DNA of 64,000 nucleotides, taken from NCBI RefSeq assembly GCF_003334785.1, contig NZ_QOWV01000008.1. One strand, written 5' to 3'. Origin of the DNA: Escherichia coli (GTDB taxonomy: Bacteria > Pseudomonadota > Gammaproteobacteria > Enterobacterales > Enterobacteriaceae). Position numbers and translations under genes: made by a program. The notes under the pieces are model-generated. The model ran no database searches. It was not told the origin of the DNA and saw only the letters and a list, made by a program, of their open reading frames with translations. Of this stretch, positions 46-53,464 are shown piece after piece. The first letter of the stretch is position 1. The number at the start of each line of letters is the position of its first letter.

Positions 46-144
46 GCCTGATGCGCTACGCTTATCAGGCCTACGAAAATCTTGCAATGTATTGAATTTT
101 CATGATTTTGTAGGCCGGATAAGGCGTTCACGCCGCATCCGGCA
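46..144. repeat. REP/BIME-type extragenic palindromic units (two inverted copies)
   Basis: gcctgatgcgctacgcttatcaggcctac and gtaggccggataaggcgttcacgccgcatccggca motifs. Confidence 0.6.
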
Positions 145-5878: not shown

Positions 5879-5997
5879 TTCCTGCCACGTAAGCCCCTCA
5901 TCGGGCACTAAAACAGCAATACAAAAATATAACCCTCTGTAAATTACAGGGCATGGTGAGCGGCTTCGCTATGCCCAAAATCTGGAGAAAGCTCGCT

Positions 5998-8351: not shown

Positions 8352-8418
8352 CTTTTCACTCACATTCATCACGATGGCAAAAGACTATTGTCTGAAAGTG
8401 AAGTCCTTGTGAAGTATG

Positions 8419-9666: not shown

Positions 9667-9667
9667 A

Positions 9668-10000
9668 TCAGTTATCAGGCATTCTGGCCGGTGGAATAAC
9701 CGCATTGGTGGCTTGCGCGTTGGCTTCGCTTTTTTCAACGCGCGAGCGCACCGAGCTGTCTTTGCGGAACACATCCCACGGCAGTAAAAGCGTGTCCATC
9801 ACAGCGGTAAACGGCATATCGAGAATCGCCAGCGACTTAGTGCCCCAGTTGGTTTCATCGTCGCCAATCATGGTTGCGCTGGCGCGGGTGCCGGGATACG
9901 TTCCTTCTTTCCCTCCGGTATGGGACATCACGCTGGAGCATCCTCCGAGTAATGTCATTCCGCTGCATATCATGAACGCTAACAACACATTTCTTATCAT
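9668..10000 (-). CDS. yidQ: Putative lipoprotein YidQ
   Basis: ORF 9668..10075; internal start MIRNVLLAFMICSGMTLLGGC with lipobox; 110 aa. Confidence 0.7.
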   Translation of the reverse strand: MIRNVLLAFMICSGMTLLGGCSSVMSHTGGKEGTYPGTRASATMIGDDETNWGTKSLAILDMPFTAVMDTLLLPWDVFRKDSSVRSRVEKSEANAQATNAVIPPARMPDN

Positions 10001-10174
10001 AATAAATTCATCTGTTGATCGTGGGTGTTGGCCTGATGAGTTATAGCGATCCCTTGCTGAAAATAACATCATCATTACGTCGCACTGTGGCGGCTATCGC
10101 ACTTTAACGTTTCGTGCTGCCCCCTCAGTCTATGCAATAGACCATAAACTGCAAAAAAAAGTCCGCTGATAAGG

Positions 10175-10204
10175 CTTGAAAAGTTCATTTCCAGACCCAT
10201 TTTT
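10175..10204 (+). promoter_or_regulatory. sigma32 heat-shock promoter of ibpAB
   Basis: -35 cttgaaa and -10 cccatttt with 14-nt spacer, about 100 nt upstream of ibpA. Confidence 0.6.
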
Positions 10205-10305
10205 ACATCGTAGCCGATGAGGACGCGCCTGATGGGTGTTCTGGCTACCTGACCTGTCCATTGTGGAAGGTCTTACATTCTCGCTGATTTCAGGAGCTAT
10301 TGATT

Positions 10306-10719
10306 ATGCGTAACTTTGATTTATCCCCGCTTTACCGTTCTGCTATTGGATTTGACCGTTTGTTTAACCACTTAGAAAACAACCAGAGCCAGAGTAATGG
10401 CGGCTACCCTCCGTATAACGTTGAACTGGTAGACGAAAACCATTACCGCATTGCTATCGCTGTGGCTGGTTTTGCTGAGAGCGAACTGGAAATTACCGCC
10501 CAGGATAATCTGCTGGTGGTGAAAGGTGCTCACGCCGACGAACAAAAAGAGCGCACCTATCTGTACCAGGGCATCGCTGAACGCAACTTTGAACGCAAAT
10601 TCCAGTTAGCTGAGAACATTCATGTTCGTGGTGCTAACCTGGTAAATGGTTTGCTGTATATCGATCTCGAACGCGTGATTCCGGAAGCGAAAAAACCGCG
10701 CCGTATCGAAATCAACTAA
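10306..10719 (+). CDS. ibpA: Small heat shock protein IbpA
   Basis: 137-aa alpha-crystallin-type s[22 protein letters not shown]... Confidence 0.95.
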
Positions 10720-10830
10720 TTCCCTAAGGCCGCCTGGCGCGGCCTGACATCTCCATGCTCGCCGTCAGGGAGCATATGCGAATCTTCGGATTTGCAGGTA
10801 CTTACTCGCTTCTTAGAAGGAGAAATGACT

Positions 10831-11259
10831 ATGCGTAACTTCGATTTATCCCCACTGATGCGTCAATGGATCGGTTTTGACAAACTGGCCAACGCACTGC
10901 AAAACGCCGGTGAAAGCCAGAGCTTCCCGCCGTACAACATTGAGAAAAGCGACGATAACCACTACCGCATTACCCTTGCGCTGGCAGGTTTCCGTCAGGA
11001 AGATTTAGAGATTCAACTGGAAGGTACGCGCCTGAGCGTAAAAGGCACGCCGGAGCAGCCAAAAGAAGAGAAAAAATGGCTGCATCAAGGGCTTATGAAT
11101 CAGCCATTTAGCCTGAGCTTTACGCTGGCTGAAAATATGGAAGTCTCTGGCGCAACCTTCGTAAACGGTTTACTGCATATTGATTTAATTCGTAATGAGC
11201 CTGAACCCATCGCAGCGCAGCGTATCGCTATCAGCGAACGTCCCGCGTTAAATAGCTAA
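10831..11259 (+). CDS. ibpB: Small heat shock protein IbpB
   Basis: 142-aa paralogue [19 protein letters not shown]... directly after ibpA. Confidence 0.95.
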
Positions 11260-11274
11260 CTAGCTATTCTCTTT

Positions 11275-11302
11275 GCCCCGCCATTCTGGTGGGGCTTTTT
11301 TT
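11275..11302 (+). terminator. Rho-independent terminator of ibpAB
   Basis: gccccgcca..tggtggggc hairpin followed by T8. Confidence 0.6.
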
Positions 11303-11454
11303 GTCTTACTTACTCAACAATGCGTTAAATTTCGACTGTTTAAGATATTTCGGCACGTTCTTTCCCGTGATAATGTGCGCTATAAGGCAAATCTGCTTCA
11401 CCGATTCAGCCATAATCCGTAGCAATTAAAATGTTATCTCAAGAGAAATGGACG

Positions 11455-13116
11455 ATGAGTGATATAGCATTAACGGTCAGTATTCTGGCTTTGGTGGCAG
11501 TCGTCGGTTTGTTTATCGGCAACGTCAAATTTCGCGGCATAGGATTAGGTATTGGCGGCGTGCTGTTTGGTGGGATCATCGTCGGCCATTTTGTTTCTCA
11601 GGCGGGGATGACATTAAGTAGCGATATGCTGCATGTTATTCAGGAATTTGGCCTGATCCTGTTCGTTTATACTATCGGGATTCAGGTAGGGCCGGGCTTC
11701 TTTGCCTCATTGCGCGTCTCCGGATTACGCCTCAACCTGTTTGCTGTTCTGATCGTCATCATCGGTGGTCTGGTTACCGCCATCCTGCATAAACTGTTTG
11801 ATATTCCACTGCCGGTAGTGCTGGGGATTTTCTCCGGTGCGGTTACCAATACGCCAGCGCTGGGGGCAGGGCAGCAGATTTTGCGCGACCTGGGTACACC
11901 AATGGAAATGGTCGATCAGATGGGGATGAGTTACGCGATGGCGTATCCATTCGGCATTTGCGGGATTTTGTTCACCATGTGGATGTTGCGGGTTATTTTC
12001 CGCGTCAATGTCGAGACAGAAGCTCAGCAGCACGAGTCTTCACGCACCAATGGCGGCGCGCTGATCAAGACTATCAATATTCGCGTTGAGAACCCTAACC
12101 TGCATGATTTAGCCATTAAAGATGTACCGATTCTCAACGGCGACAAAATTATCTGCTCGCGTCTGAAACGCGAAGAAACCCTAAAAGTTCCTTCGCCAGA
12201 TACCATTATCCAACTGGGCGATTTGCTGCATCTGGTGGGTCAGCCAGCGGATTTACATAATGCGCAACTGGTGATTGGTCAGGAGGTCGATACTTCGCTG
12301 TCCACGAAAGGCACTGATTTGCGCGTCGAGCGTGTGGTGGTCACCAATGAAAACGTGCTCGGAAAACGTATTCGCGACCTGCACTTTAAAGAACGCTATG
12401 ACGTTGTTATCTCGCGCCTGAACCGTGCCGGGGTCGAACTGGTCGCCAGTGGCGATATCAGCCTGCAGTTCGGCGATATCCTCAATCTGGTGGGGCGTCC
12501 GTCCGCAATTGATGCCGTTGCCAATGTGCTGGGGAATGCGCAGCAAAAACTGCAACAGGTTCAGATGCTGCCAGTGTTTATTGGCATCGGGCTAGGCGTA
12601 TTGTTAGGTTCTATTCCCGTCTTTGTGCCAGGATTCCCGGCCGCGTTGAAACTGGGGCTGGCGGGCGGACCGCTGATTATGGCGTTGATCCTCGGGCGTA
12701 TCGGCAGTATCGGCAAGCTGTACTGGTTTATGCCGCCAAGCGCCAACCTCGCGCTGCGGGAGCTGGGGATCGTGCTGTTCCTCTCGGTCGTTGGTCTGAA
12801 ATCTGGTGGGGATTTTGTGAATACCCTGGTCAATGGCGAAGGGCTAAGCTGGATTGGTTATGGTGCCCTGATCACCGCCGTTCCGCTGATTACTGTTGGC
12901 ATTCTGGCGCGGATGTTAGCCAAAATGAATTACCTGACCATGTGCGGGATGCTGGCAGGTTCCATGACCGATCCTCCGGCGCTGGCGTTTGCTAATAATC
13001 TTCATCCAACCAGCGGTGCGGCGGCGCTCTCTTACGCCACTGTCTATCCGTTGGTAATGTTCCTGCGCATTATCACCCCCCAATTACTGGCGGTGCTCTT
13101 CTGGAGTATCGGTTAA
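11455..13116 (+). CDS. yidE: Putative transporter YidE (AAE family, twin TrkA-C domains)
   Basis: ORF 11431..13116; start [14 protein letters not shown]...; 553 aa. Confidence 0.85.
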
Positions 13117-24270: not shown

Positions 24271-24366
24271 ATATTTGGACAAAACGCAAACTGTGATCGA
24301 TACTCAACTATGCACTAAATACGTCAAAATTCGTGCCGAAATTGCGCGTTCTGCGCGGAACACGTA

Positions 24367-24452
24367 TACTTTCAGTGTTGACATAATACAGTGTGCTTTG
24401 CGGTTACCAGCCGCAGGCGACTGACGAAACCTCGCTCCGGCGGGGTTTTTTG
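24367..24452 (+). ncRNA. istR: IstR-1 antitoxin sRNA (approximate boundaries)
   Basis: tatact -10 element upstream; body is near-complementary to a copy at 24108..24135 inside the tisAB leader; ends at hairpin plus T6. Confidence 0.45.
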
Positions 24453-40616: not shown

Positions 40617-41249
40617 TCTTCTGAATCACCGGGCGAAAAAATATAACTGAGTTACAAATAAGTACCAGTCGAATGAGTATTGTATTAAGAATTTTTGAGT
40701 ATCGCTGATACAACCAGAAAGCAATGCTAGCGCAATATTATAGGGCCAGCAATTGAGATTATTAGTAAAAGCATGTTAAGAATTAATTACCGAATTTATA
40801 TATTAATTATAGTAAGGCAATGAGCTATTTTTGATAGTAAAAATAAAACAAGTTGATTTGATATATTAAATGAACAAATTAATCTTGATGGCAGTCTGAT
40901 TATTGGTGAAGTTTATAGTCAGTTTTTTTCGCCAGCGGTTAAAGAAATAGAATAGTCGTATAAAAAAGGGTGTTCTGGGGCGAGTAAAACAACATCTTCA
41001 CCTTAATGGCGATACAGTTGGCTGAGAGTCAGCAGGGGGGCAAATCACCTGCAAATAAACACGGCGCATACTGGCGTGAATATCGCGGATGCGTTCGAGG
41101 ACAGAAGAACCGACAGGCGGATTCTTCAGCCGCTCATCGTCCATCACAAAACCTTAGACCAGGTATTCCTGAAGCCGATTGAATATTGAGCAGTAGAAAA
41201 TATCTGGATTGACAGTATTACAAGGGGTTGGAGAACGTCAGGAGAGGCA

Positions 41250-41273
41250 TTTTGGCGGAAGATCACAGGAGTC
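41250..41273. repeat. Distal att repeat: 24-bp direct copy of the selC 3' end
   Basis: ttttggcggaagatcacaggagtc is identical to 53075..53098. Confidence 0.7.
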
Positions 41274-41401
41274 AAAATTGACATATAACAATTTGATTCC
41301 AATCGTTTATATTTATCAGCTCTAATTCATTTATACACATCCTTATACACATAATATCTGTCGATTAATTTTTACACGTATCTTCACGCACGTTAACTCA
41401 G

Positions 41402-41695
41402 GAAAAAAATTTTTTTTCGAAAGAACTGTTCACACTGTTCACCTTTCTGTTTTCTCCTTTTATTTCAGTTTGATAGGTGGTGAATAATGGGTGAAGGGTG
41501 AACATTCGATTCTTCACCTCCGGCATTCTGCCGGTGTGACTTGTGCAGGGGATTAATCCTCCGCACTGAAATCACACAGGGAGAAAAAAGTTTTTTTGAT
41601 TTGATTGTTCATCTTTCGTTTTTCTCTTTTAATTTCAGTGTGATAACGGGTGAATATACGGTGAAGGGTGAACAGTGGATTGTTCACTTTCGGGG
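41402..41695. repeat. crr-like region: two imperfect ~120-bp direct repeats with TGTTCAC motifs
   Basis: Units at about 41402..41522 and 41579..41695 share tgttcac / gggtgaa / ggtgaagggtgaaca blocks. Confidence 0.6.
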
Positions 41696-41703
41696 AATTC
41701 AGG

Positions 41704-41731
41704 GATAAAAAAAGACCGGCAGATGCCGGTC
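41704..41731 (-). terminator. Rho-independent terminator after alpha
   Basis: gaccggcagatgccggtc hairpin with U-run on the minus strand. Confidence 0.6.
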
Positions 41732-41738
41732 AGATGAG

Positions 41739-44072
41739 TCAGGCTGTTGCAGGGTCGTCACATTTCGGCAGCCAGTCGCCGTAGCTTTCCTCTTTCAGCG
41801 TCAGGTTGGTCTGTATCCCCTGTTTGGTATGGCGCTTCTCGTAATTCAGTCCGTATTCCTTCAGCATCACCGGCAGCCCCAGCCCGAACATTTTCAGACT
41901 GAGTACATTCCGGTAGCCGTTTGCCTCCATGTAGGCCAGATAGGCGTGATAGAGGTATTTACGGTAATTACGCGGGATGATACTGGCGTTCCCCATATAC
42001 ATGCCGCTGGTCTGCGGCAGGGTTTCCAGATAGCCGATAAAATCAAACGTCGGGTCGGCATCCCGTTTGATGTTCAGTGCCTCGTCTGAGTTCTGCTGGG
42101 ACTGAAGCAGTGACCGGGCGAGCATCGGGTCGCTGAACTTCTGCATCAGGTAACGCACGATGACCGCCAGCTCGCGGGTGATTTTGTCCTTAAGCTGCGG
42201 GTCGCGCTCCTGCGGGGCTATCTGTTCCGGGAAGTGAATAATCACCCGCCGGCGTGACACGCCGCCGCTGCGGTCGGTGAAGCGCATCGGGTTATTGTTC
42301 ACGGCCAGAATCACCGCCGGGATGTGCGTGGAGTACGCATCCCGGTATTTCGGGTCAACGGACACCGCATCGCCGCCGGTGATGGCCTTGAGTCCGGCAC
42401 CGTCGCCGCTCCATTTTTCCTGGTCCGGCAGGCGTATCAGTGAGAAGCCAGTTAACGCGGCACGTTCACGCGGGGATTCCAGCGTCTCGATGGTGGCCGA
42501 CGTGGCGTTATCCTCACCGGCCAGCAGGGTGGCTATTTCGGCCATGATACTTTTGCCGCTGCCGCCGGGACCGGTCACCTCCAGAAAGAGCTGCCAGTCG
42601 TAGCGGTTTGCCAGCACCATAAACAGTGCGGCCAGAATCACGTCGCGTTTTTCCGCACGGCCACCGGCGGCACGGTCAAGCCAGCGCCAGAATGCGGGGG
42701 CGTGGGTTTCCAGCGTTTCACCTTCCACCGGCGGGGTGAAATCCACATCGCACAGGGCGCGCATCCAGTGTGACGGACTGTGCGGGTGGAACGTGCCGTT
42801 CTGCGTGTCGAGCACGCCGTTACGAAAGCCAATCAGGCGGCGGGAGGGGGCTTCCTGCTGCGGAATAATCAGCTTCAGGGTGTCCACCACGGAGGCCACC
42901 TTCCCGGAGGAGAACGGCGCGCGCAGACGCTGAAACAGCCCGGCCACATCCCGGGCAAAGTCCTGTGGTGGCAGCACCTTCCAGACACCATTTTCATAGC
43001 GGGACAGAAGCTGGCCGTTGGCATCGACCGCGAGCGCCTCGCCGTAATGCTCATAGATACGCATGGCCTTTTCGCTGGTACTCATGGCGGAAAACTCCGC
43101 TTCGCTCATGGTGTCGAACGGGCTTTCAGCCGGTGGCCGGATGGCATCATAAATGGCCTTACGGGTGGTTTCCCCGCCGTACTGCGTGAAGGCATCATTC
43201 CAGTCACCGAAGACCGGCGGCAGGGCAACAACGCCCTCACACGCATCTGCGGCTGCGGCGGCTTTTTTCTGGCCGTCACCGCTGAGGTCACGGTCTGCGG
43301 CAAGGACAATCTGACAGGCCGGATGCTTCTGCCGGGCAAGGCTGGCCAGAGAAAGGAGGTTCACGGAAGAAAGCGCCACCATCACCGTTTCACCGGTCAG
43401 GTGATGTACGGTAAGTGCGGTCGCGTATCCCTCCGCTATCCACAGACGTTTTCCGGCCTGATTCTGTCCTTCAAGGGTGTGACAGGTGCCCCTGACCTGT
43501 CCGCCTTTCAGGGTGCGCTTACGGCCGTCAGCACTGATTAACTGAAGGTTAACCAGTTCGCCGCTGTCGTCATACAGTGGCACCACAAGGTCACCGGCGC
43601 GCCAGCTCACGCCACCGGCTCTGTGTGTGCCGGTCAGCATCCGGCATTCCCGGCCGGGAAAGCCCTTGCGGGTCAGGTAGGCGTTACCGGTTCCGGGACG
43701 GGTTTTCGCCATCAGGGTTTGTGCCAGTGCGGCGGCGTTCTTCCGGGCGGCTTCTGTTTCAGCACCGGCGGCGGCCGTCACTGCCGGGTCAGCCGGGGGC
43801 AGGCAGCCGGTCACGGCAGCCACCTTTGCGGCCGCGTCGGACGGGGAAACACCAAACACCTTTTCAACCAGTTTCAGGCCGTCACCGGCACCACACTGAT
43901 TGCAGTACCAGGTGCCGCGCCCCTCCCTGTCATCAAAACGGAAACGGTCACTTCCGCCACAGACCGGACAGGGCTGATGACGGTTTTTCAGCACCTGAAT
44001 CCCCAGCGACGGGAGAATACGCGGCCAGTGGCCGAGCGCATGGCTGACGGTGGCGGTTACGTTCATTTTCAT
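41739..44072 (-). CDS. P4 alpha-type primase-helicase
   Basis: 777-aa ORF; N-terminal zinc-ribbon CPVCGG..CNQCG, Walker A GPGGSGKS. Confidence 0.9.
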   Translation of the reverse strand: MKMNVTATVSHALGHWPRILPSLGIQVLKNRHQPCPVCGGSDRFRFDDREGRGTWYCNQCGAGDGLKLVEKVFGVSPSDAAAKVAAVTGCLPPADPAVTAAAGAETEAARKNAAALAQTLMAKTRPGTGNAYLTRKGFPGRECRMLTGTHRAGGVSWRAGDLVVPLYDDSGELVNLQLISADGRKRTLKGGQVRGTCHTLEGQNQAGKRLWIAEGYATALTVHHLTGETVMVALSSVNLLSLASLARQKHPACQIVLAADRDLSGDGQKKAAAAADACEGVVALPPVFGDWNDAFTQYGGETTRKAIYDAIRPPAESPFDTMSEAEFSAMSTSEKAMRIYEHYGEALAVDANGQLLSRYENGVWKVLPPQDFARDVAGLFQRLRAPFSSGKVASVVDTLKLIIPQQEAPSRRLIGFRNGVLDTQNGTFHPHSPSHWMRALCDVDFTPPVEGETLETHAPAFWRWLDRAAGGRAEKRDVILAALFMVLANRYDWQLFLEVTGPGGSGKSIMAEIATLLAGEDNATSATIETLESPRERAALTGFSLIRLPDQEKWSGDGAGLKAITGGDAVSVDPKYRDAYSTHIPAVILAVNNNPMRFTDRSGGVSRRRVIIHFPEQIAPQERDPQLKDKITRELAVIVRYLMQKFSDPMLARSLLQSQQNSDEALNIKRDADPTFDFIGYLETLPQTSGMYMGNASIIPRNYRKYLYHAYLAYMEANGYRNVLSLKMFGLGLPVMLKEYGLNYEKRHTKQGIQTNLTLKEESYGDWLPKCDDPATA

Positions 44073-44086
44073 GGTGTTGTTCTCCT

Positions 44087-44407
44087 TCAGTGCAGTACCG
44101 GCGCTTTTATGTGACGGGCACAGAGTTCATCCATCACAACCAGCCCGAGAAAGGACAGCGACGGCGCGGCCTTCAGGGGGCCGGATTCCATTAAATCTTC
44201 CAGCAGGGCACAGGCTATCTGACGCCCTTTTTCCTCACCGTGCTGGCGCAGATAAAAGCCTTCCAGCTCAGCGGCGATGGCCGCCTCCAGTGACTCAAGG
44301 GTGAGATGCGGGTAGCGGTGCTGACGTTCGCACACGGTCAGCCAGGCACAGGCGACAGCGCGACGGTAAAGGGCAGCGCGTAAGACGGGCGGTAAGGGGG
44401 TTTTCAT
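44087..44407 (-). CDS. Hypothetical protein, P4 left-operon position (orf106-like)
   Basis: 106-aa ORF immediately upstream of alpha, same strand. Confidence 0.5.
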
Positions 44408-44542
44408 TTGTTTTCCTCCCTGTGACAGATGACTGCATTCCGTGCCGGTTGCATTAACTGATAAGGCATATCTGCGTCTCCTGAAGACGTGCGTATCCCT
44501 GCGCGAATACGCACATTTAATTTTTCGGGTGTCGTTTTTTAA

Positions 44543-44998
44543 TTACAGATAATTGCGGTAACTGTTATCCGGGGTGATTTCCGGGTCAGGCTCCGTGCGG
44601 GGAATTTCCCGCCATTCCCGCGCCACCGGTGCCGCCCGGCTGACCGGAACAGGGTCCTGCGGGTAAATATCCAGATATTTCTCCCGCCATTTCTGTAATT
44701 CCGGGTCTCCGGCCATTTCTTTCAGTACCGCATGCCGGTTTACGGGGCTGCGTTTAAACAGGTCAGGACGGTCACAGGTAAATTCCCGCAGAAAACGCCC
44801 CAGCGGGATGTCTGTGGTGCGCCCGTCGGCGATGATACGCACAAGGATACTGAATTTACGGCGGTACGGGTTCCAGACAATTTCCGGGCAGCGGTACGGC
44901 ATTTCCCACGGAATACCGTCTTCCAGAATGCCGACCACGGCCACATCGGGAAAACCGGCAGAACGGTAAATCTCACCGGGCTGGGGAAAATCAAACAT
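44543..44998 (-). CDS. Hypothetical protein, P4 left-operon position (orf151-like)
   Basis: 151-aa ORF co-oriented with alpha. Confidence 0.5.
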   Translation of the reverse strand: MFDFPQPGEIYRSAGFPDVAVVGILEDGIPWEMPYRCPEIVWNPYRRKFSILVRIIADGRTTDIPLGRFLREFTCDRPDLFKRSPVNRHAVLKEMAGDPELQKWREKYLDIYPQDPVPVSRAAPVAREWREIPRTEPDPEITPDNSYRNYL

Positions 44999-45857
44999 GC
45001 GTCCTGTCTCCCCGGTCTTTCTGCTGGGCGAGAAAATCGCGGCACAGGCCTTTGGCTTTCAGCTCATTCAGCACAAAATCAATATCTTCATTCAGGTAAC
45101 TGAAAATATGCGGAATGTAGAGCTGATGCAGGCCGGAGAGTTCACGGTGAATCAAATCACCCCCAACAAACTGGGATACGGCGCTGGCGCGGTTGAGCTT
45201 ATGGTAAGCCTCAATGCTGAGGTGTTCACGGGCGTCATGACGCGCTGAGACGGTCTGAGGGGCTTTTTTATTACGCACGGGACACCTCCACCACCGGCAG
45301 ACGGGCAGCAAGGGAGAGCACATAGTCACGGACAAGGGAACGGCGGGCGCTGCGTTCATCACCGGCGACGGTGCGAAGCATACAGATACGGGGATGACGG
45401 TCTGTGCGACGGACAGCCGCAAACACAAAGACAAATTCAGGGTGTGAGGGGGTAAGGGTTGTAGCCATGATGGCAGCCTCCTGTGAATAGCAAATAACGC
45501 TATCGCCGGAGTTCTCACGCTCGATGGCGATAGCCCAGACGGGGGTGAGAATACCGGCTTCACAGGATACCGGCCAGCCCGGAGGCTGCCCCGCCTGAGC
45601 TACCATTGACTCAGAGGCATAACATGCGATTGCGAACAGGATCATACCTGCACGGCAAACCACACGCCACACCATAATCTGGTGCTCTGTGGCGTTGATT
45701 GCGACACAAAAAAAGACGCATGGCGCGTCATATGTCGCCTGTGAATTGCTCGGGTTCTCACGCCCGGCTGCCGATTTTGCGGCAGCGGAAAAACTATATC
45801 CGCAAATGCCGGAAAAAGGCAAGCCAGAAAAAGGGAGTTTTTGCAGAGCGGGCATCA

Positions 45858-46124
45858 TCATGCGTCGTACCCCCGTTTGCGTCCGGCAATGCGTCCGGCC
45901 ATCCATGCGGTGACTTCAGAGTGCAGCCAGGCCACATTTTTACCGCCAAGACTCACCTGCGGCGGAAATTCCCCCTTACGGATGAGTTCGTAGATGGTCG
46001 AGCGTGACAGGCCGCACAGGTGCATCACTTCCGGAAGACGTAAAAAACGCTCCTGTGTGATGTCCGGCAGCGGCATCAGTGGCGTCACAGGGGCGGGAGA
46101 CGGGGAAGAAAAAACAGCTTGCAT
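45858..46124 (-). CDS. AlpA/Vis-family small DNA-binding regulator
   Basis: 88-aa ORF with HTH-like [16 protein letters not shown]. Confidence 0.65.
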
Positions 46125-46403
46125 CGGGCTACCTCGTTAATGTCCATACAGCACCGGATAAGTCCGTCCGGCTTCAGGTAGCGCTTTATTTTGTGAATAT
46201 TTTCAGCAGACGCAACAGGGGGGATTTGTTCCGGCAGCCTTACAATGCTTGTGTATTTTTTGTTCATCTCCACTTAAAGTCATTTAAAGCCACTTAAAGC
46301 AATTCGTAATTTTTATAGTGAAATACAAATCGTTTTTTCTTATTCATTCCCGGCGAATTAATAAAAACAAACAGTAATAAACAGCACAAAAAGCCCATCA
46401 ACG

Positions 46404-46508
46404 GGTGAACAGTGGTGAACAGACGGTGAACAGTCATTACTGCGATTGTTCACCCTTTAACTTACTGTATTACTTATCTTTTTTCTTATGGTGAACAGAG
46501 GTGAACAG
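46404..46508. repeat. ori-like iteron cluster (GGTGAACAG octamer copies)
   Basis: Five direct copies of ggtgaacag plus one inverted ttgttcacc within about 105 bp, between divergent vis and sid. Confidence 0.6.
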
Positions 46509-46676
46509 TAAAATATAAAAAAACAAACAGTAAGCCGGTTTTTCCTACGACCTTTTCCTGGCTTGCCGGTGTGAGGATGAGTCTCCTGTGTCAGGGCTGG
46601 CACATCTGCAATGCGTCGTGTTGTTGTCCGGTGTACGTCACAATTTTCTTAACCTGAAGTGACGAGGAGCCGGAAA

Positions 46677-47411
46677 ATGTCTGACAACACCATCCCTGAA
46701 TATCTGCAACCCGCACTGGCACAACTGGAAAAGGCCAGAGCCGCCCACCTTGAGAACGCCCGACTGATGGATGAGACCGTCACGGCCATTGAACGGGCAG
46801 AGCAGGAAAAAAATGCGCTGGCGCAGGCCGACGGAAATGACGCTGATGACTGGCGCACAGCCTTTCGTGCAGCCGGTGGTGTCCTGAGCGACGAGCTGAA
46901 ACAGCGCCACATTGAGCGCGTGGCACGCCGGGAGCTGGTACAGGAATATGACAATCTGGCCGTGGTGCTGAATTTTGAACGTGAACGCCTGAAAGGGGCG
47001 TGTGACAGCACGGCTACCGCCTACCGGAAGGCACATCATCACCTTCTGAGTCTGTATGCAGAGCATGAGCTGGAACACGCCCTGAATGAAACCTGTGAGG
47101 CGCTTGTCCGGGCAATGCATCTGAGCATTCTGGTACAGGAAAATCCGATCGCCAACACCACCGGCCATCAGGGCTACGTCGCACCCGATAAGGCTGTCAT
47201 GCAGCAGGTGAAATCATCGCTGGAACAGAAAATTAAACAGATGCAAATCAGCCTCAGCGGCGAGCCGGTTCTCCGGCTGACCGGACTGTCAGCGGCAACA
47301 CTTCCGCACATGGATTATGAGGTGGCAGGCACACCGGCACAGCGCAAGGTGTGGCAGGACAAAATAGACCAGCAGGGAGCAGAGCTTAAGGCCAGAGGAC
47401 TGCTGTCATGA
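46677..47411 (+). CDS. P4 Sid-like capsid size-determination scaffold
   Basis: ORF 46659..47411; ATG at 46677 preceded by gaggag RBS; 244 aa, coiled-coil-rich. Confidence 0.8.
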   Translation: MSDNTIPEYLQPALAQLEKARAAHLENARLMDETVTAIERAEQEKNALAQADGNDADDWRTAFRAAGGVLSDELKQRHIERVARRELVQEYDNLAVVLNFERERLKGACDSTATAYRKAHHHLLSLYAEHELEHALNETCEALVRAMHLSILVQENPIANTTGHQGYVAPDKAVMQQVKSSLEQKIKQMQISLSGEPVLRLTGLSAATLPHMDYEVAGTPAQRKVWQDKIDQQGAELKARGLLS

Positions 47412-47908
47412 TTTACTGCCCGTCGTGTGGACATGTTGCTCACACCCGCCGCGCACATTTTATGGACGATGGCACCAAGATAATGATTGCACAGTGCCGG
47501 AATATTTATTGCTCTGCGACATTTGAAGCGAGTGAAAGCTTTTTCTCTGACAGTAAAGATTCAGGAATGGAATACATTTCAGGCAAACAGAGATACCGCG
47601 ATTCACTGACGTCAGCCTCCGGTAGCATGAAGCGCCCGAAAAGAATGCTTGTTACCGGATATTGTTGTCGGAGATGTAAAGGCCTTGCACTGTCAAGAAC
47701 ATCGCGGCGTCTGTCTCAGGAAGTCACCGAGCGTTTTTATGTGTGCACGGATCCGGGCTGTGGTCTGGTGTTTAAAACGCTTCAGACCATCAACCGCTTC
47801 ATTGTCCGCCCGGTCACGCCGGACGAACTGGCAGAAAGCCTGCATGAAAAACAGGAACTGCCGCCAGTACGCTTAAAAACACAATCATATTCGCTGCGTC
47901 TGGAATGA
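47408..47908 (+). CDS. P4 Delta-like late transactivator (tandem Ogr-type zinc finger)
   Basis: 166-aa ORF with two CxxC..CxxC blocks (CPSCGH..CRNIYC and CRRCKG..CTDPGC). Confidence 0.8.
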   Translation: MIYCPSCGHVAHTRRAHFMDDGTKIMIAQCRNIYCSATFEASESFFSDSKDSGMEYISGKQRYRDSLTSASGSMKRPKRMLVTGYCCRRCKGLALSRTSRRLSQEVTERFYVCTDPGCGLVFKTLQTINRFIVRPVTPDELAESLHEKQELPPVRLKTQSYSLRLE

Positions 47909-47981
47909 GGGCTGCCGGTTAACACCGGCCGTCGCCGCACACCGTATTTTTATTCTTCAGCATGATGAGAAAGAGATAACG

Positions 47982-48554
47982 ATGGAAAGCACAGCCTTAC
48001 AGCAGGCCTTTGACACCTGTCAGAATAACAAAGCAGCATGGCTGCAACGCAAAAATGAGCTGGCTGCGGCCGAACAGGAATATCTGCGGCTTCTGTCAGG
48101 AGAAGGCAGAAACGTCAGTCGCCTGGACGAATTACGCAATATTATCGAAGTCAGAAAATGGCAGGTGAATCAGGCCGCCGGTCGTTATATTCGTTCGCAT
48201 GAAGCCGTTCAGCACATCAGCATCCGCGACCGGCTGAATGATTTTATGCAGCAGCACGGCACAGCACTGGCGGCGGCACTGGCACCGGAGCTGATGGGCT
48301 ACAGTGAGCTGACGGCCATTGCCCGAAACTGTGCCATACAGCGTGCCACAGATGCCCTGCGTGAAGCCCTTCTGTCCTGGCTTGCGAAGGGTGAAAAAAT
48401 TAATTATTCCGCACAGGATAGCGACATTTTAACGGCCATTGGATTCAGACCTGACGCGGCTTCGGTGGATGACAGCCGTGAAAAATTCACCCCTGCGCAG
48501 AACATGATTTTTTCGCGTAAAAGTGCGCAACTGGCATCACGTCAGTCTGTGTAA
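47982..48554 (+). CDS. P4 Psu-like polarity suppression / capsid decoration protein
   Basis: 190-aa ORF following delta. Confidence 0.8.
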   Translation: MESTALQQAFDTCQNNKAAWLQRKNELAAAEQEYLRLLSGEGRNVSRLDELRNIIEVRKWQVNQAAGRYIRSHEAVQHISIRDRLNDFMQQHGTALAAALAPELMGYSELTAIARNCAIQRATDALREALLSWLAKGEKINYSAQDSDILTAIGFRPDAASVDDSREKFTPAQNMIFSRKSAQLASRQSV

Positions 48555-48718
48555 AATTCCCCGAAAATCCGCCCGTTTTTACTGAAAAAAGCCATGCATC
48601 GATAAGGTGCATGGCTTTGCATGCGTTTTCCTGCCTCATTTTCTGCAGATCGCGCCACGCCCGGCGTGGCCTGAGCGTGTCAGCGCAACTGCATTAAAAC
48701 CATCCCACAAAGCGGGCG

Positions 48719-48737
48719 GGCGAGGCGGGGAAAGCAC
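48719..48737. other. cos site (P2/P4-type 19-nt cohesive end sequence)
   Basis: ggcgaggcggggaaagcac. Confidence 0.6.
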
Positions 48738-48979
48738 TGCGCGCTTACTTAGATGCGTGAATTTATTTATATCACTGAAGTATATCCCTAAGCTCATTTC
48801 TCAAAGGGCCTATGGTTGCACAAGGTTGTACCATGGCATTCAAAACTTTTTAAACCAAGAATGACAATTTCATTATTAGGCCGGAATAGTTACTAATTTT
48901 AGTATAGGTTGCGATTGTTTAACGCATTTTTTATTATGATGCAGATTTTATTATTACTAATGGGGTGCAAAAAACACGT

Positions 48980-50269
48980 ATGAAAAAAAATGTTGGTAAC
49001 CGCAATAAAAATTCTGATGTGCTTATTCTTAAAGGTATGTTGAACAATTTAAAAGATGGTTTAAATAATTTTGAATTATTGCTTAAATTGCAGTTTAAAA
49101 TATTGGTGTGCGTGATGAGATGTGAGCGGAAAATTAAGTTTCTTAAAAAGAATAATGCTCATTTAAGGTCGGTGTTAAAAAAATCAAGACTTCCAAAAGA
49201 AAAATCTCTGGCAGTAAAAGAAAAAATTAAATACAATTCTGAAGTAATTACTGCTGAAAAATTCAAGATATATACGTATAAAATGTTTGGCGATGCTGTT
49301 GCATTTTTATACATCGATAAATATACAATTAAACAGTTATACTACAATGTACATAATTACAATGTTAAAGAAACGTCGGGGGATTTGAGCGGTAAGTCTG
49401 GATTGCGAGAGGAATGGGAATGCGTAAAACTTGCATGTGATAATAAAGTTCCAGCTCTGTTGCATGATATTACAATGAGTATAAGGCATGGAGATGTATC
49501 ACTTTTAGGTAAAGATGAGCCATTTATTATTGAGATGAAATCAAGCTCAAATACAAATAAGAGAGTTGAGCGGCAAAAATCTAACCTTGAAAAATTAGGA
49601 AGTTTCATAGCAAAAGACGAAGCTGAAAATTTTCGAGGGATTCCATTGTTAATCAGGAAAAATTTGTTAACTGAAGAGGAATCATATTCTCAGGTTTTAA
49701 ATGAGTGTCTTAATGATTGTCGCAGCAAAGGAATGGCTTTGGTTGAAGCTGAAAAAGGATTTTATATCTGCGCAGTTAGAGAAGGGAATATGGCTTCTAT
49801 GCTAGAAAATATAGATTTTGATGAAAAAAAAGAAGTTTTTCCTGTATTTCTCAATCAATATAAAAATAATGGGGAGTGGCTACCATTAACACCATTTACA
49901 CTATTAATTAACGATCCTTACGATCTCCATGATTTTATCGAAGGGGAATTAACAATAGCTTGTTTTTTAATGCTCGATGAATACAAAAAAATTGCTATAG
50001 AACTAGGCTATGAATTAGTTTTTGTTTCTAATGATGAATATAGTATCTTGTTAAAAAGAATTGGTGAAGATATTATATTTGGTGTTTCCTGGCAAATGTT
50101 GTTAAGAGTTCCATTAGAGATGATGTCCATGTCATGGTTGATAAAAGAAAGTATTAATATATATAGTAACTCCCTAGAAAATAGCACCCATAATGATGAA
50201 TTAAATCAGGGGCAGGGAAATACTAAAAATTCATTATTCGAAAAATACAAGAATTTATTTTCTTACTAA
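48980..50269 (+). CDS. Hypothetical protein in satellite variable region; PD-(D/E)xK-like signature
   Basis: ORF 48965..50269 (GTG) or ATG at 48980; AT-rich; motif HGDVSLLGKDEPFIIEMK. Confidence 0.6.
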   Translation: MKKNVGNRNKNSDVLILKGMLNNLKDGLNNFELLLKLQFKILVCVMRCERKIKFLKKNNAHLRSVLKKSRLPKEKSLAVKEKIKYNSEVITAEKFKIYTYKMFGDAVAFLYIDKYTIKQLYYNVHNYNVKETSGDLSGKSGLREEWECVKLACDNKVPALLHDITMSIRHGDVSLLGKDEPFIIEMKSSSNTNKRVERQKSNLEKLGSFIAKDEAENFRGIPLLIRKNLLTEEESYSQVLNECLNDCRSKGMALVEAEKGFYICAVREGNMASMLENIDFDEKKEVFPVFLNQYKNNGEWLPLTPFTLLINDPYDLHDFIEGELTIACFLMLDEYKKIAIELGYELVFVSNDEYSILLKRIGEDIIFGVSWQMLLRVPLEMMSMSWLIKESINIYSNSLENSTHNDELNQGQGNTKNSLFEKYKNLFSY

Positions 50270-50301
50270 TTAAGCATTGTAATTATATTTGATTTTTTCT
50301 A

Positions 50302-50335
50302 CAGGCTTGGACGGAATCATATAGCTCCAAGCCTG
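50302..50335. terminator. Hairpin between the two convergent cargo ORFs
   Basis: Perfect 10-bp stem caggcttgga..tccaagcctg with 14-nt loop. Confidence 0.45.
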
Positions 50336-50370
50336 TTGTGTCGGTATCAAAAAGAAAGTGATATTATTGT

Positions 50371-51744
50371 TTATCTAATATATTTTGTTACTTCCATATT
50401 ATCTTCATCGTCAAAAGAGTACTCAACCATCATACGACTATTTTTACCTGACTTAATATCTTGAAGCCAAGCTGAGGCAACCCTAGGGTCTAAATGCTGT
50501 TTTCTACTCAGCTCATTATTTTTTAGCCTATCAAGCCTTATTGCTCTTTGAAGAGTTTTATCGATGTAGTCTTCCAAATCAATGGACAACCTCCTTTTTG
50601 GATATAAATATTGGTATTCATCACACAATAGTACTCCTGGTAATTTAATTTCGCGTAGGTCGAAAGAATACCAACTATAGTTTTTAGACTCATTAGCTAA
50701 TTCCGAAACTAGATGAGCCCCATTTTGTTGTAAGAGAGATATTTTGTGATCGATGCTAATGTCAGATATTTCTCTTAAAGACTCAAAATGCATGTTTTCG
50801 TAGATAGTATTTAATAAAATACTCTCCATGTAAGAGTAAAAATCAGTACCATCGATGATAATATTAGTTTCATTGTAGACTGCAAGAGACATAAGATATA
50901 TGAAGAAAACTGCGGGAGTACTATTACCTCTGTTTATATCAAGTCTAAGGGAGTTGACATAATCAGGCGGAGAGTTTGAGAAAATTTCTCTTATTAACCA
51001 GTCTGGAATAGTGGTTCTTGTTAGAATGTCAGCGTTCAAACTTGAACGACATAAAAAAATACACATCTTTAATTTTAATTTTATTGAAAATGATGGGAAT
51101 AAATGATCGATGAAAGATAAAATACATGTATACTCTGCTAAGTCTGTTTGTTGCAACTTTTCTTTTATTTCATTTTCAAGCATTTTTAATTTAAAAAAAT
51201 CATTCCTTTTTTCTAATATTTCCCAATGAAATAATTGCTCCTGAGCGTACGCATGCCCCTCTAAAATAGCTAGCATGCTTAAAGGAATGTTTAGGATTTC
51301 TTGATAATTATTAACATACCCAAAGAAATGGACTCTGATATACACACCCATATCGTCATCATATTGTAATGATGCTTTAATATTTTTATAATTTAATTTA
51401 TTAGTGCTGTTGTTTTTGAAGTGATAATGTAAAGTAATTTCAGTATCATCAACTAATAAATTATCAAAAGCCTCCTTTGTTTCATATTTAAAATAGTTAT
51501 ATAGCCGACATGAATAATTTAACCCCCAGTGAGTTGTAGAACAATCAAGTAAATGGATTGTTTCATGGAGATATGTTTTATAAAATTCAATTTCGCTATC
51601 ATCAAAATCATATATGCTTTTACTGTCTATGATATTTTGTGCTTGCGGTAAACTTATATTTAATTCATCGTTTGAAATCTCAATTAAATGTGATGAAAAA
51701 TCATAAGAACCCAATGTTTTGCTGTTAAATATACATCCGCTCAT
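50371..51744 (-). CDS. Hypothetical protein with HEXXH zinc-metallopeptidase motif, translationally coupled to int
   Basis: 457-aa AT-rich ORF; YLHETIHLLD at residues 58..67; start overlaps int stop as ATGA; agggga RBS. Confidence 0.65.
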   Translation of the reverse strand: MSGCIFNSKTLGSYDFSSHLIEISNDELNISLPQAQNIIDSKSIYDFDDSEIEFYKTYLHETIHLLDCSTTHWGLNYSCRLYNYFKYETKEAFDNLLVDDTEITLHYHFKNNSTNKLNYKNIKASLQYDDDMGVYIRVHFFGYVNNYQEILNIPLSMLAILEGHAYAQEQLFHWEILEKRNDFFKLKMLENEIKEKLQQTDLAEYTCILSFIDHLFPSFSIKLKLKMCIFLCRSSLNADILTRTTIPDWLIREIFSNSPPDYVNSLRLDINRGNSTPAVFFIYLMSLAVYNETNIIIDGTDFYSYMESILLNTIYENMHFESLREISDISIDHKISLLQQNGAHLVSELANESKNYSWYSFDLREIKLPGVLLCDEYQYLYPKRRLSIDLEDYIDKTLQRAIRLDRLKNNELSRKQHLDPRVASAWLQDIKSGKNSRMMVEYSFDDEDNMEVTKYIR

Positions 51745-52916
51745 AGCAAATCCCCTAAAAGATAATCAGAGTACCATTGAATCATCGTTTTCCTTTGAGA
51801 AAAATATTGTGCGTGATTATAGGTTCCTCGGATATTGTTCTTATCAACATGTGCTAATTGCATTTCAATCCAGGTACTATCAAATCCCTGTTCATGTAGG
51901 ATTGTTGACATTGTATGTCTAAAACCGTGACCTGTAGCACGTCCTTTGTAACCAAGTAACTCAATCACTTGTGAAACACTTTCTTTTGAAATTGGTTTGC
52001 TACGATTGTTCCTGCCAATAAAAATATAGGGATAATGGCCGGTGATAGGCTTTAGCTGTTTAAAGAGGTCTACCACCTGAGTAGACAAAGGTACAATATG
52101 TGGTCTGCGCATTTTCATACGTTCCGCTGGTATCTCCCATATACCTTTTTCGAGGTCTACTTCTTCCCACGTAGCAAAGCGCATCTCCTGCGTTCTTACA
52201 CCAGTCAGCATGACTATCTTCGTAGCATTTTTGGTGATGATGCTACCGGTATAAGCTTCGAGATCCCGAATAAAATGAGGCAATTCTTCGGCAGATAGAA
52301 ATGGATGATGTTTTTGCTTAGGAACGGCCAGAGCGATGGCTAAATCAGGCGCAGGATTGTATTCAGCGCGGCCAGTTATGATTGCGTAGCGATAAACCTC
52401 ACCGCACCTCTGACGTACCTTACGTGTTTTCTCTAGTGCTCCACGCTTCTCTATTCGTCGCAACACTTCAAGAAGTTCTAAGGGTTTGATTTCACTAATA
52501 GGACGTTTACCAATGAACGGGAAAACATCTTGCTCAAATGTTTTAATAATTTCTTCGCGGTAGGCAAGTGTCCAGCGATCGGCTTTATTTGAGTGCCACT
52601 CACGACATATAGCCTCGAATGAGTTTTCTGTTGAGAGCTGCTGTGCCAGCTTTTGGGCTTTACGTTCTTCCACTGGGTCTATGCCGTTTGCAACCTGCTT
52701 CCGAGCTGTATCGCGTTTCTCACGTGCTTCAGCTAGGCTCACAAGGTCGTAGCTACCAAATGACATTAACCGCGCTTTTCCGGCAAAGCGGAAACGGAAA
52801 CGCCAGCCCTTCGAGCCATCGGGATTGATAAGCAATGACAGGCCCTGCCCGTCGTTCAATGTGTATGGCTTGTCTTGGGGCTTTGCTCGTTTGATTTGTA
52901 TATCTGTAAGTGCCAT
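51741..52916 (-). CDS. int: P4-type tyrosine integrase
   Basis: 391-aa ORF with C-terminal catalytic-type residues (GHGFRHT.., ..NHAQY); adjacent to tRNA 3' end. Confidence 0.9.
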   Translation of the reverse strand: MALTDIQIKRAKPQDKPYTLNDGQGLSLLINPDGSKGWRFRFRFAGKARLMSFGSYDLVSLAEAREKRDTARKQVANGIDPVEERKAQKLAQQLSTENSFEAICREWHSNKADRWTLAYREEIIKTFEQDVFPFIGKRPISEIKPLELLEVLRRIEKRGALEKTRKVRQRCGEVYRYAIITGRAEYNPAPDLAIALAVPKQKHHPFLSAEELPHFIRDLEAYTGSIITKNATKIVMLTGVRTQEMRFATWEEVDLEKGIWEIPAERMKMRRPHIVPLSTQVVDLFKQLKPITGHYPYIFIGRNNRSKPISKESVSQVIELLGYKGRATGHGFRHTMSTILHEQGFDSTWIEMQLAHVDKNNIRGTYNHAQYFSQRKTMIQWYSDYLLGDLL

Positions 52917-53077
52917 GTGTATAAGCCAAAAATATGTATAAAAAATCTATACACATCACTATACATATTTTTCATGGATTCAGGGAGATCTTGTCGGACG
53001 GTTACGGATGAGTGATTTACTATATGTTTTGAAAATAAAGGATTTTTAGACTCTCTCGGATGGTGACGGAAGAATTT

Positions 53078-53172
53078 TGGCGGAAGATCACAGGAGTCGA
53101 ACCTGCCCGGGACCGCTGGCGGCCCCAACTGGATTTGAAGTCCAGCCGCCTCACCGGAGACGACGATCTTCC
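53078..53172 (-). tRNA. selC: tRNA-Sec (selenocysteine)
   Basis: Minus strand reads GGAAGATCGTCGTCTCCGGTGAGGCGGCTGGACTTCAAATCCAGTTGGGGCCGCCAGCGGTCCCGGGCAGGTTCGACTCCTGTGATCTTCCGCCA. Confidence 0.85.
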
Positions 53173-53464
53173 GCGCCTCGATTGCTACATGGAGGCGGGG
53201 CGCATTATAGCTACTTCCTTGAGTTTCTACATCCCCCAGATCAGTTTTTTCCGCCTAATACACGCAGCGTATTATCACGAAAGCATTATAGTTCATATAA
53301 AATCCATATTTTACAATGATATATGAGCGGAATTAACGCTACCACGATCACATAAAACAAGAATCATAAATTAATAACCAGATATCGGAATATTCGCTCT
53401 CACAGGGATGGTTTACAAAATGCGTTATCGGTCTCAGCACCCCTATAGCATCAAGGAAAAGTAG

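Follow-up and report, generated by a model that had tools for sequence, protein, structure and literature searches.

The placement of an integrase gene beside tRNA-Sec, with a P4-type satellite in selC, is an arrangement that is already well known. The closest known element, matched through its published description, is the retronphage phiR73 (Inouye et al. 1991 Science 252:969; Sun et al. 1991 J Bacteriol 173:4171; as cited through PMC8628076, ref 21, and PMC6174562, ref 15), a P4-like satellite in selC of E. coli that needs P2 for its transfer (PMC8628076). P2-dependent transfer has been described for P4-like satellites (Rousset et al. 2022 PMC9122126; de Sousa and Rocha 2022 PMC8628076), and a variable hot spot lies between psu and int in these satellites (PMC9122126, PMC8628076).

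The window analysed here is a stretch of 64,000 nucleotides of E. coli DNA (contig NZ_QOWV01000008.1), and in its region 41249-53098 the 3' end of selC is very probably occupied by a complete P4-type satellite (11,825 bp) that appears functional and has the integrase Int as its site-specific recombinase. The features of the element are collected in Table 1.

Table 1. Features of the selC-borne element and its junctions, with positions in the window.
Feature	Position	Strand	Basis
att core, distal junction (crr/alpha side)	41249-41273		25/25 identical
crr-side candidate arm sites TATACACAT, tandem pair	41332-41340 / 41344-41352	plus	repeat and motif scan
crr, cis replication region	41404-41700		collinear with P4 crr 4291-4590
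crr direct repeats with TGTTCACC alpha-binding octamers	41436-41523, 41606-41693		repeat search
alpha primase-helicase, 777 aa	41739-44072	minus	98.5% to P4 alpha; phrog_2249, E 4e-240
orf106 (DUF5375)	44087-44407	minus	100% over 87 aa to P4 ORF106
orf151	44543-44998	minus	97.4% to P4 ORF151
epsilon (ash), helper derepression protein	44991-45278	minus	98.9% to P4 epsilon
C4-type antisense RNA (P4 cI immunity RNA)	45523-45610	minus	Rfam
C4 RNA targets and isrK	45709-45799		Rfam
vis / alpA (orf88), excisionase and late-promoter regulator	45861-46124	minus	98.9% to P4 ORF88
sid, capsid size determination	46677-47411	plus	98.4% to P4 Sid
delta, late gene activator	47408-47908	plus	98.2% to P4 Delta
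psu, polarity suppression / capsid decoration	47982-48554	plus	98.9% to P4 Psu; phrog_6366, E 7e-101
cos cohesive-end sequence GGCGAGGCGGGGAAAGCAC, 19 nt	48719-48737		identical to first 19 nt of linear P4
cargo gene 1, coiled-coil and putative PD-(D/E)xK / NERD-like nuclease	48965-50269	plus	motif, AFDB50 folds
cargo gene 2, HExxH protein, 457 aa	50371-51744	minus	invariant motif residues
int, 391-aa tyrosine integrase, ATG start	52916-51741	minus	ORF list, Pfam, alignments
int-side candidate arm site TATACACAT, over int ATG	52915-52923	minus	motif scan
int-side candidate arm site TATACACAT	52932-52940	minus	motif scan
int-side candidate arm sites TATACACAT, tandem pair	52948-52956 / 52960-52968	plus	motif scan
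att core, tRNA side (int-proximal junction)	53074-53098		exact 25-nt direct repeat
selC, tRNA-Sec (anticodon TCA), intact	53078-53172	minus	ARAGORN; Rfam RF01852

The tRNA-Sec gene was the only tRNA detected in the window by ARAGORN, and it matched its Rfam model with 83.8 bits over model positions 1-91 of 91, indicating a full-length gene. The start codon of int lies on the same strand, 161 nt downstream of the selC 3' end according to the ARAGORN and ORF coordinates, in agreement with an earlier note on this DNA that had put the distance at about 160 bp. The same note had proposed that the att core overlaps the final ~21 nt of the tRNA and that integration regenerates selC. Both proposals held: the core ATTTTGGCGGAAGATCACAGGAGTC, consisting of 21 nt of the selC 3' end including CCA and 4 nt downstream, recurs exactly at the distal junction with a start-to-start spacing of 11,825 bp, and the inner edge of this repeat falls exactly on the end coordinate given in the note, 53098. 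With a 28-nt core probe and up to 3 mismatches, 2 matches were obtained in the window compared to 0 in 100 shuffles, and no 25-nt repeat at a distance of 11,825 bp is expected by chance. The predicted empty site, in which a single core copy links both outer flanks, occurred without interruption and at 100% identity in many E. coli, such as strain ML35, and at least 80% of it was covered in 2486 genomes. The tRNA is kept intact because the element brings a copy of these final 21 nt with it. By its repeat, its tRNA-adjacent int and its precise empty site, the element is classified as a tRNA-targeting integrative element.

For the integrase, arm-binding, central and catalytic domains were all present, with Pfam matches to PF13356 (residues 3-88, E 3e-27), PF22022 (100-193, E 2e-33) and the catalytic domain PF00589 (206-370, E 4e-26). 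The alignment of catalytic residues with lambda and P4 Int, which the earlier note had suggested as a check, recovered all six (R241, K268, H330, R333, H356 and Y366). The first five are invariant with lambda R212, K235, H308, R311 and H333, and Y366 is conserved with P4 Int in the motif R-x-x-Y-x-H. Since MAFFT set lambda Y342 five residues off relative to Y366, the tyrosine was assigned from the P4 alignment and from how far the Pfam match extends. The N-terminus aligned from residue 1 with PDB 3ju0 and 2kj8, the arm-binding domains of related integrases, indicating that the start codon is not miscalled, and the length of 391 aa fits the 387-396 aa of the cluster members. With three domains and six catalytic residues in place, Int is neither truncated nor inactivated as far as can be read from its sequence, and it is assigned as a full-length tyrosine recombinase/phage integrase of the P4 family (DUF4102 / Arm-DNA-bind_3).

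Six candidate TATACACAT arm sites flank the two cores in the P4 layout. On the int side, their number, spacing and position are as in the annotated attP arm repeats of P4, and the crr-side pair lies 59-79 nt from the core, compared to 54-77 nt for the pair of P4 from the P4 core. The N-terminal domain of Int is predicted to bind the TATACACAT sites on either side of the 25-nt core, while its central and catalytic domains would bind the core itself, and strand exchange would take place inside the stretch shared with the selC 3' end.

The interior of the element is a P4 backbone. Window positions 41404-48718 were collinear with P4 (NC_001609) positions 4291-11624 at 97.7% nucleotide identity over ~7.3 kb, and nine P4 proteins (alpha, ORF151, epsilon, the cI-region ORF, Vis, Sid, Delta, Psu and ORF106) were 91-100% identical, compared over their full length except for ORF106 (87 aa). 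The homology reaches cos and extends 26 nt across it, and the flank matches P2 cos at 86%. In the immunity region, Rfam models RF01695, RF01394 and RF03163 scored 74.9, 71.4 and 49.5 bits, and the P4 ORF88 counterpart of vis is annotated as 'excisionase and transcriptional regulator'. All seven core components by which P4-like satellites are defined in PMC8628076 (Int, Psu, Delta, Sid, Vis/AlpA, Epsilon and Alpha) were present, the latter six at full length and 98-99% identical to the P4 proteins, and the 11,825 bp are close to the 11,624 bp of P4, a length suited to the small capsid, with an identical cos of the kind shared with P2-type helpers. No helper prophage was found within the window. 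As a separate observation, the earlier note did not recognise the whole element as a P4 in which the int/att module and the cargo have been exchanged.

The earlier note had also suggested that the cargo could be mobilised by a helper phage if the element is able to excise, a view with which the complete P4-type satellite, the P4-identical cos and the helper-exploitation genes are consistent. With this cos and the genes sid, psu, delta, epsilon, alpha and vis, a P2-type phage is the expected helper, and excision with mobilisation by such a helper is predicted from the gene content. In a lysogen, the C4-type cI RNA would silence the element. Once a P2-type helper infects or is induced, Int together with Vis would excise it, alpha would replicate it from ori/crr, Delta and Epsilon would switch on the late genes of the helper, and Sid and Psu would shrink the P2 capsid, so that P2 terminase could package the 11.8-kb genome from cos and the cargo could reach new hosts. 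This scheme presumes that Vis is compatible with the selC-type attP and that the element depends on a helper.

The alternative that survives best, though an unlikely one, is that the satellite looks intact and no longer excises, for example because the P4-type Vis misfits attP or because int is never expressed, so that its cargo is vertically inherited as a fixed chromosomal island. It draws on the attP junction (int flank, core and crr flank), which was absent from all collections searched: the exact pattern was found neither in IMG/VR nor in JGI metagenome contigs, the Int-bearing IMG/VR contigs showed no such junction, megablast detected none in PLSDB plasmids, and no place in 5426 complete E. 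coli genomes covered at least 80% of it. A missing attP in assemblies is, on the other side, what is expected for a repressed prophage. A shorter core-plus-crr pattern was found in IMG/VR in two contigs, both rejected as attP: in L003, a prophage had been cut at the att sites, and in L004, the int that comes after crr and core is another one, frameshifted and with P4-type CCCCC arm sites, which makes this contig a tandem island.

The same alternative is favoured by lesions of 1-5 nt in the distal core of 6 of the 11 other copies that were read, indicating that copies in this satellite family can become locked in. These lesions recur at GGCGG^AAGATC and may mark both the strand-exchange region of Int and a way for hosts to lock in a satellite that is useful to them. 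In Klebsiella, a decayed copy keeps the same cargo next to an int that is truncated and a remnant of alpha. In addition, both attP arms are unrelated to those of P4 (homology starts at 41404), yet Vis is of the P4 type (98.9%), and no sigma-70-like promoter was found by consensus scan between selC and int. Against this, the copy in the window has perfect cores, seven full-length P4 core genes and the P4-identical cos. Furthermore, 4-5 differences were counted across the 11.8 kb of the element in the strains A1 and Z1323HEC0067, where it lies in chromosomes whose selC-yicJ-yicI flanks diverge by 1.3% (A1) and 2.2% (Z1323HEC0067) and in different local contexts (rhuM/setC versus LEE), which requires recent transfer and site-specific integration. 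The apparently functional satellite is the preferred reading.

The attR of the element is present in roughly 480 E. coli genomes. The site preference extends to relatives. Int relatives at least 90% identical were found in IMG/VR elements of 10-15 kb that abut selC/yicJ wherever the flank is present; for the 40 most similar loci among the best 80, every one with an upstream flank showed selC/yicJ. In some of these flanks, yicJ is only 77-80% identical, indicating other genera. At one IMG/VR locus (L042), int is interrupted by unrelated DNA, and no att or host match was found there.

It is very improbable that Int belongs to a generic selC pathogenicity or genomic island of the LEE, SHI-2 or PAI-I type, unrelated to phage satellites and moved in another way, if at all. 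Such islands with P4-family integrases have selC as a classic insertion site (PMC7545054, PMC6174562), and in Z1323HEC0067 the element is stacked at selC between the tRNA and LEE. However, the 11.8 kb between the repeats are collinear with P4 and carry cos, sid, psu, delta, epsilon, alpha and vis, there are no virulence genes inside the element, and LEE in Z1323HEC0067 lies beyond the distal core, beside remnants of a separate att arm with CCCCC-type sites. That int and a short repeat stand near selC by coincidence, with the true attachment site elsewhere, is hardly conceivable, as no supporting point was found against the shuffled controls, the exact empty site in E. coli genomes and a junction shared by all carriers, other genera included.

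Within the P4-type satellite, the two low-GC genes next to int are present because they occupy the cargo hot spot. In other strains, SIR2 or GapS4a/b genes were found at this position, with backbone and int unchanged. Cargo gene 1 encodes 434 aa from GTG 48965, or 429 aa from ATG 48980 (RefSeq), with the invariant residues D163, R169, D172, E185 and K187. The ATG of cargo gene 2 overlaps the stop codon of int (ATGA), and its product has invariant H60, E61, H64, D67, H106 and E162 among 34 diverse relatives and belongs to a family of ~190 clusters, which also includes a lone cassette in a Vibrio superintegron.

No Pfam match was obtained for either protein or any aligned homologue, RVT_1 included. 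Neither protein matched a defence family in PADLOC-DB v2 at E up to 0.01, NCBIfam, or PDB by sequence and profile. In PHROGs, cargo gene 1 matched only a family of unknown function, and cargo gene 2 had no match. The AlphaFold model of the 457-aa protein (pLDDT 49) was too poor for a structure search. The model of the 429-aa protein (pLDDT 72) was of low confidence over the putative active site; it had no match in PDB and matched only uncharacterised relatives in AFDB50, a few of them named NERD, nuclease or DUF4263. An obligate two-gene system was weakened as a candidate, since homologues of the 457-aa protein in Vibrio and Idiomarina stand without the partner.

It is possible, and is suggested here only tentatively, that the pair represents one or two new anti-phage genes, with the HExxH gene translationally coupled to int. 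In one supplementary file of PMC9122126, the pair (WP_001406847 and WP_000742539) appears among the hot-spot loci as 'hypothetical + hypothetical'. More than one third of the cloned hot-spot systems protected against phages (PMC9122126), and so did 6 of 8 unknown loci picked at random from the P4 hot spot in a 2026 bioRxiv preprint, among whose newly named P4 systems the two accessions were not found. At these rates, the two unannotated genes are reasonable candidates for cloning.

The main use of the analysis is correct annotation, by which an integrase beside selC is recognised as belonging to a P4-type satellite that is fully delimited and apparently mobile, and in which attL, attR, cos and the genes for immunity and helper exploitation are placed. 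Its practical value lies in the cargo, the only unstudied part of the element. The strain comparison gives a clear case of an element reinserted site-specifically next to LEE, and also of int moving together with cargo, as one module, between P4 backbones that differ slightly.

Compared to phiR73, the element shares integration in selC and a P4 backbone in which the int/att module is not that of P4 and the hot spot next to int carries foreign cargo. The Int of phiR73 is ~40% identical to P4 Int, as is the Int described here. The cargo differs: phiR73 carries the retron Ec73, whereas two unrelated genes without a reverse transcriptase domain are found here. No retron RNA was detected in the Rfam scan and no RVT_1 by Pfam in the cargo, indicating a relative of phiR73 with other cargo, not phiR73 itself.

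Compared to P4, the crr-to-cos identity of 97.7%, the helper-exploitation, replication and immunity genes, the match at cos and the genome size (11.8 kb here and 11.6 kb in P4) are shared, as are a core 150-160 nt upstream of int, an arm site that overlaps the start of int and a tandem pair of arm sites on either side. Unlike in P4, Int is 48 aa shorter and only 38% identical to P4 Int, the arm sites are TATACACAT instead of the ATGCCCCC type, the selC 3' end serves as core in place of P4's own, and two unknown cargo genes replace gop-beta-cII. As in the defence hot spot of P4-like satellites, the variable locus adjoins cos between psu and int, but neither cargo protein matches a defence library. 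With the selC islands LEE, SHI-2, PAI I-536 and Tia PAI, the element has in common the tRNA and a P4-family integrase at its 3' end (PMC7545054); those islands are mostly immobile mosaics of 20-110 kb without P4 satellite genes and cos, whereas the element in the window is a compact complete satellite.

The integrase at selC proved to be real, to have been read correctly and to be known in kind. When compared by megablast with 5426 complete genomes of E. coli, the window fell at the E. coli selC locus, where yicJ and yicI form one flank and setC, yicL and nlpA form the opposite one. The coordinates of int and selC in the earlier note were correct, as was its spacing of about 160 bp (161 nt from the 3' end of the ARAGORN tRNA-Sec to the open reading frame). 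The 21-nt overlap that it had described between att core and tRNA was likewise correct: the core ATTTTGGCGGAAGATCACAGGAGTC (53074-53098) consists of the last 21 nt of the tRNA and the next 4 nt, and an exact copy, the distal core, lies at 41249-41273. No such repeat arose by chance in 100 shuffles of the window. The core-to-core distance is 11,825 bp, and the segment so bounded is referred to as the element.

An empty site of 676 nt was predicted by joining the outer flanks via one copy of the core (window 40900-41273 plus 53099-53400). This site was found unbroken at 100% identity in many E. coli, e.g., ML35, indicating that the insertion was exact and that selC does not differ between occupied and empty sites; the site was covered to at least 80% in 2486 E. 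coli genomes. The earlier statement that integration leaves selC intact is thus upheld by this comparison. A rhuM pseudogene fragment is part of the empty site and therefore predates the insertion of the element; it may be left over from an earlier island at selC. Elsewhere in the window, the matches to the istR antitoxin sRNA, the ROSE_2 RNA thermometer and the ES036 sRNA at the Rfam gathering threshold are ordinary E. coli chromosomal features.

Coordinates of features at the selC locus, in the element and elsewhere in the window
Feature	Position	Strand	Remark
tRNA-Sec (selC)	53078-53172	minus	ARAGORN, sole tRNA within the window; full Rfam tRNA-Sec model, 83.8 bits
int open reading frame, 391 aa	52916 to 51741	minus	same strand as selC; begins 161 nt past the 3' end of the tRNA
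457-aa cargo gene	50371-51744	minus	ATG overlaps int stop as ATGA
429/434-aa cargo gene	48965/48980-50269	plus	coiled-coil protein
cos cohesive end GGCGAGGCGGGGAAAGCAC	48719-48737		the same 19 nt begin the linear P4 record
Candidate arm sites TATACACAT, int side	52915-23; 52932-40; 52948-56 / 52960-68		first over int ATG, last two a tandem pair; motif scan
Candidate arm sites TATACACAT, crr side	41332-40 / 41344-52		tandem pair, 59-79 nt past the distal core; repeat and motif scan
rhuM pseudogene fragment	~41013-41174		between setC and the distal core; annotated in RefSeq relatives
istR	24322-24451		Rfam
ROSE_2	10240-10312		Rfam
ES036	67-109		Rfam

The encoded integrase (Int) contains the Pfam arm-type DNA-binding (residues 3-88), phage integrase central (100-193) and catalytic (206-370) domains. 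Solved structures exist for domains of related prophage integrases, and these align with Int from its first residue onward, indicating that the start codon is right, and cluster relatives have 387-396 aa, so Int is not truncated. In an alignment with lambda Int and P4 Int (38% identity to the latter), R241, K268, H330, R333 and H356 occupy invariant columns with lambda R212, K235, H308, R311 and H333, and Y366 lies within an R-x-x-Y-x-H motif common to P4 Int. The alignment proposed in the earlier note as a check on int therefore gave a full-length protein with its catalytic residues, and a truncated or inactivated integrase was ruled out.

In the annotated attP of the satellite phage P4 (NC_001609), the core lies ~150 nt upstream of int, a single arm repeat covers the start of int, and tandem arm pairs lie on the int side and, 54-77 nt beyond the core, on the crr side. 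The attP layout in the window is that of P4, but the arm word, TATACACAT, differs. With one mismatch allowed, 8 of its 14 matches in 64 kb fall within the two short stretches beside the cores. From the parallel with P4 attP, we infer that Int would bind these candidate arm sites.

The remainder of the element is largely that of P4. Window 41404-48718 aligns with P4 4291-11624 at 97.7% identity over 7.3 kb, and this stretch contains crr (two repeats bearing TGTTCACC), the alpha primase-helicase, ORF106, ORF151, epsilon, the cI region, vis (ORF88), sid, delta and psu. Eight backbone proteins are full length and 91-99% identical to their P4 counterparts, with concordant PHROG matches; ORF106 is 100% identical to P4 over the 87 aligned aa, and the C4-type antisense RNA (P4 cI immunity RNA) and its targets were detected with Rfam. 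The P4 alignment stops at the final base of the linear P4 record, and the sequence around the adjoining cos also matches the cos of P2. The element has, in full length, all seven components by which a Type A P4-like satellite is defined. Three parts are not of P4 type, namely the cargo (48745-51740), int with its upstream region (51741-53098) and the 130 nt (41274-41403) that separate the distal core from crr. The Vis protein is that of P4 but the attP arms are not, so that Vis may or may not suit this attP.

Of the 5426 complete E. coli genomes, 10 had the whole element; in further genomes, this backbone and int occupied selC together with other cargo, e.g., SIR2 or GapS4a/b genes. Compared with the element in the window (11.8 kb), 4 differences were found in strain A1 (echidna) and 5 in strain Z1323HEC0067 (human), while the selC-yicJ-yicI flanks diverged by 1.3% and 2.2%, respectively. 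Near-identical elements between flanks so divergent require that the element was transferred horizontally, and recently, and then inserted site-specifically at selC. In Z1323HEC0067 (NZ_CP148378.1, 1-6025), the element is bordered by selC on one side and, instead of setC/rhuM, by the espF end of the pathogenicity island LEE on the other; just outside the distal core are a fragment of IS3 and what remains of a second att arm (P4-type CCCCC repeats), indicating that islands are stacked in tandem at selC. A comparable tandem with a frameshifted second int was seen in an IMG/VR contig (L004). Relatives at least 90% identical to Int in IMG/VR lie within 10-15 kb elements and, wherever a flank is present, it is selC/yicJ, with yicJ identity down to 77-80%, a level that points to other genera. 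The int-plus-cargo module (48745-53073) was 99.7-100% identical across five strains, whereas the P4 backbone (41404-48744) was ~2% divergent in three of them (comparison including L015-L017), indicating separate histories and pointing to modular exchange.

For an excised or circular form, the predicted attP junction was absent from IMG/VR, PLSDB, complete E. coli genomes and JGI metagenomes; contig L004, with a core followed by int, was rejected as attP, because it is a tandem island whose int is a different one and frameshifted. In a non-random sample of 11 other copies, the distal core was perfect in 5 and carried lesions in 6 (loci L014, L015, L017, L022, L023 and L024): deletion of one A, with or without a C>T change, or deletion of 5 nt, all at GGCGG^AAGATC. 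The selC-side core was perfect in every copy read, and the element in the window is perfect at both cores. Strain A1 has 2 changes in the 25-nt core versus only 4 in the remaining 11,800 nt. Such lesions could have arisen at the crossover region after integration and lock the element in, or they could be attP variants that were inherited. Decay does happen in this satellite family: in Klebsiella pneumoniae (L005-L009), both cargo genes lie at selC with int truncated to 279 aa and a remnant of alpha (273 aa) next to them, a decayed satellite with its cargo kept.

The cos-int region, at 31% GC, holds two convergent genes (window 48745-51744) in the P4 psu-int hot spot. The TGA of int and the ATG of the 457-aa gene overlap at 51741-51744 on the minus strand (CTATGAGC), which suggests co-transcription and translational coupling of this cargo gene with int. 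Searches of Pfam, PADLOC, NCBIfam, PHROGs and PDB gave nothing for the 457-aa protein, and its structure model was too weak for use. When 1.84 billion representative proteins were searched with a profile, 188 related clusters emerged, and H60, E61, H64, D67, W73, G74, H106, G133, E162, E204 and Y205 were invariant over 34 diverse members with identity down to 18%. The HExxH (HExxHxxD) signature suggests a metal-dependent hydrolase.

Pfam, PADLOC, NCBIfam and PDB gave nothing for the 429/434-aa protein, and its sole PHROG match is of unknown function. Its invariant residues D163, R169, D172, E185 and K187 form a D...ExK pattern. The structure model was of moderate confidence (pLDDT 72, pTM 0.75), and low over residues 116-222, which hold this motif; it gave ~100 uncharacterised AFDB fold matches, among which a few bear the names NERD, nuclease or DUF4263, and no structural match in PDB. 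Homologues of the 457-aa protein in Vibrio parahaemolyticus (L010-L012) and Idiomarina (L013), with 34-35% identity, occur without the 429-aa partner, indicating that the two cargo genes need not be one system. The Vibrio homologue is a lone cassette among acetyltransferase and toxin-antitoxin cassettes in a superintegron-like array, and that of Idiomarina adjoins Tn7-like tnsA/tnsB/tniB/tniQ genes.

The variable psu-int hot spot next to cos is well documented in P4-like satellites (PMC9122126, PMC8628076). The cargo pair is entered as 'hypothetical + hypothetical', untested, among the P4 hot-spot loci in Table S1 of Rousset et al. 2022 (PMC9122126), and it is absent from the supplements of a 2026 preprint naming new P4 systems. 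Judged by its sequence, the element fits a Type A P4-like satellite with a tRNA-targeting tyrosine integrase in each feature open to such comparison. Any new biology would lie in what the two cargo genes do and in what the lesions in the distal core of other copies mean. According to citing papers (e.g., PMC8628076), a selC-integrated, P2-dependent P4-like satellite was described in 1991 as retronphage phiR73; the element is likewise a P4-like satellite in selC, but it carries no retron and is therefore not phiR73 itself.
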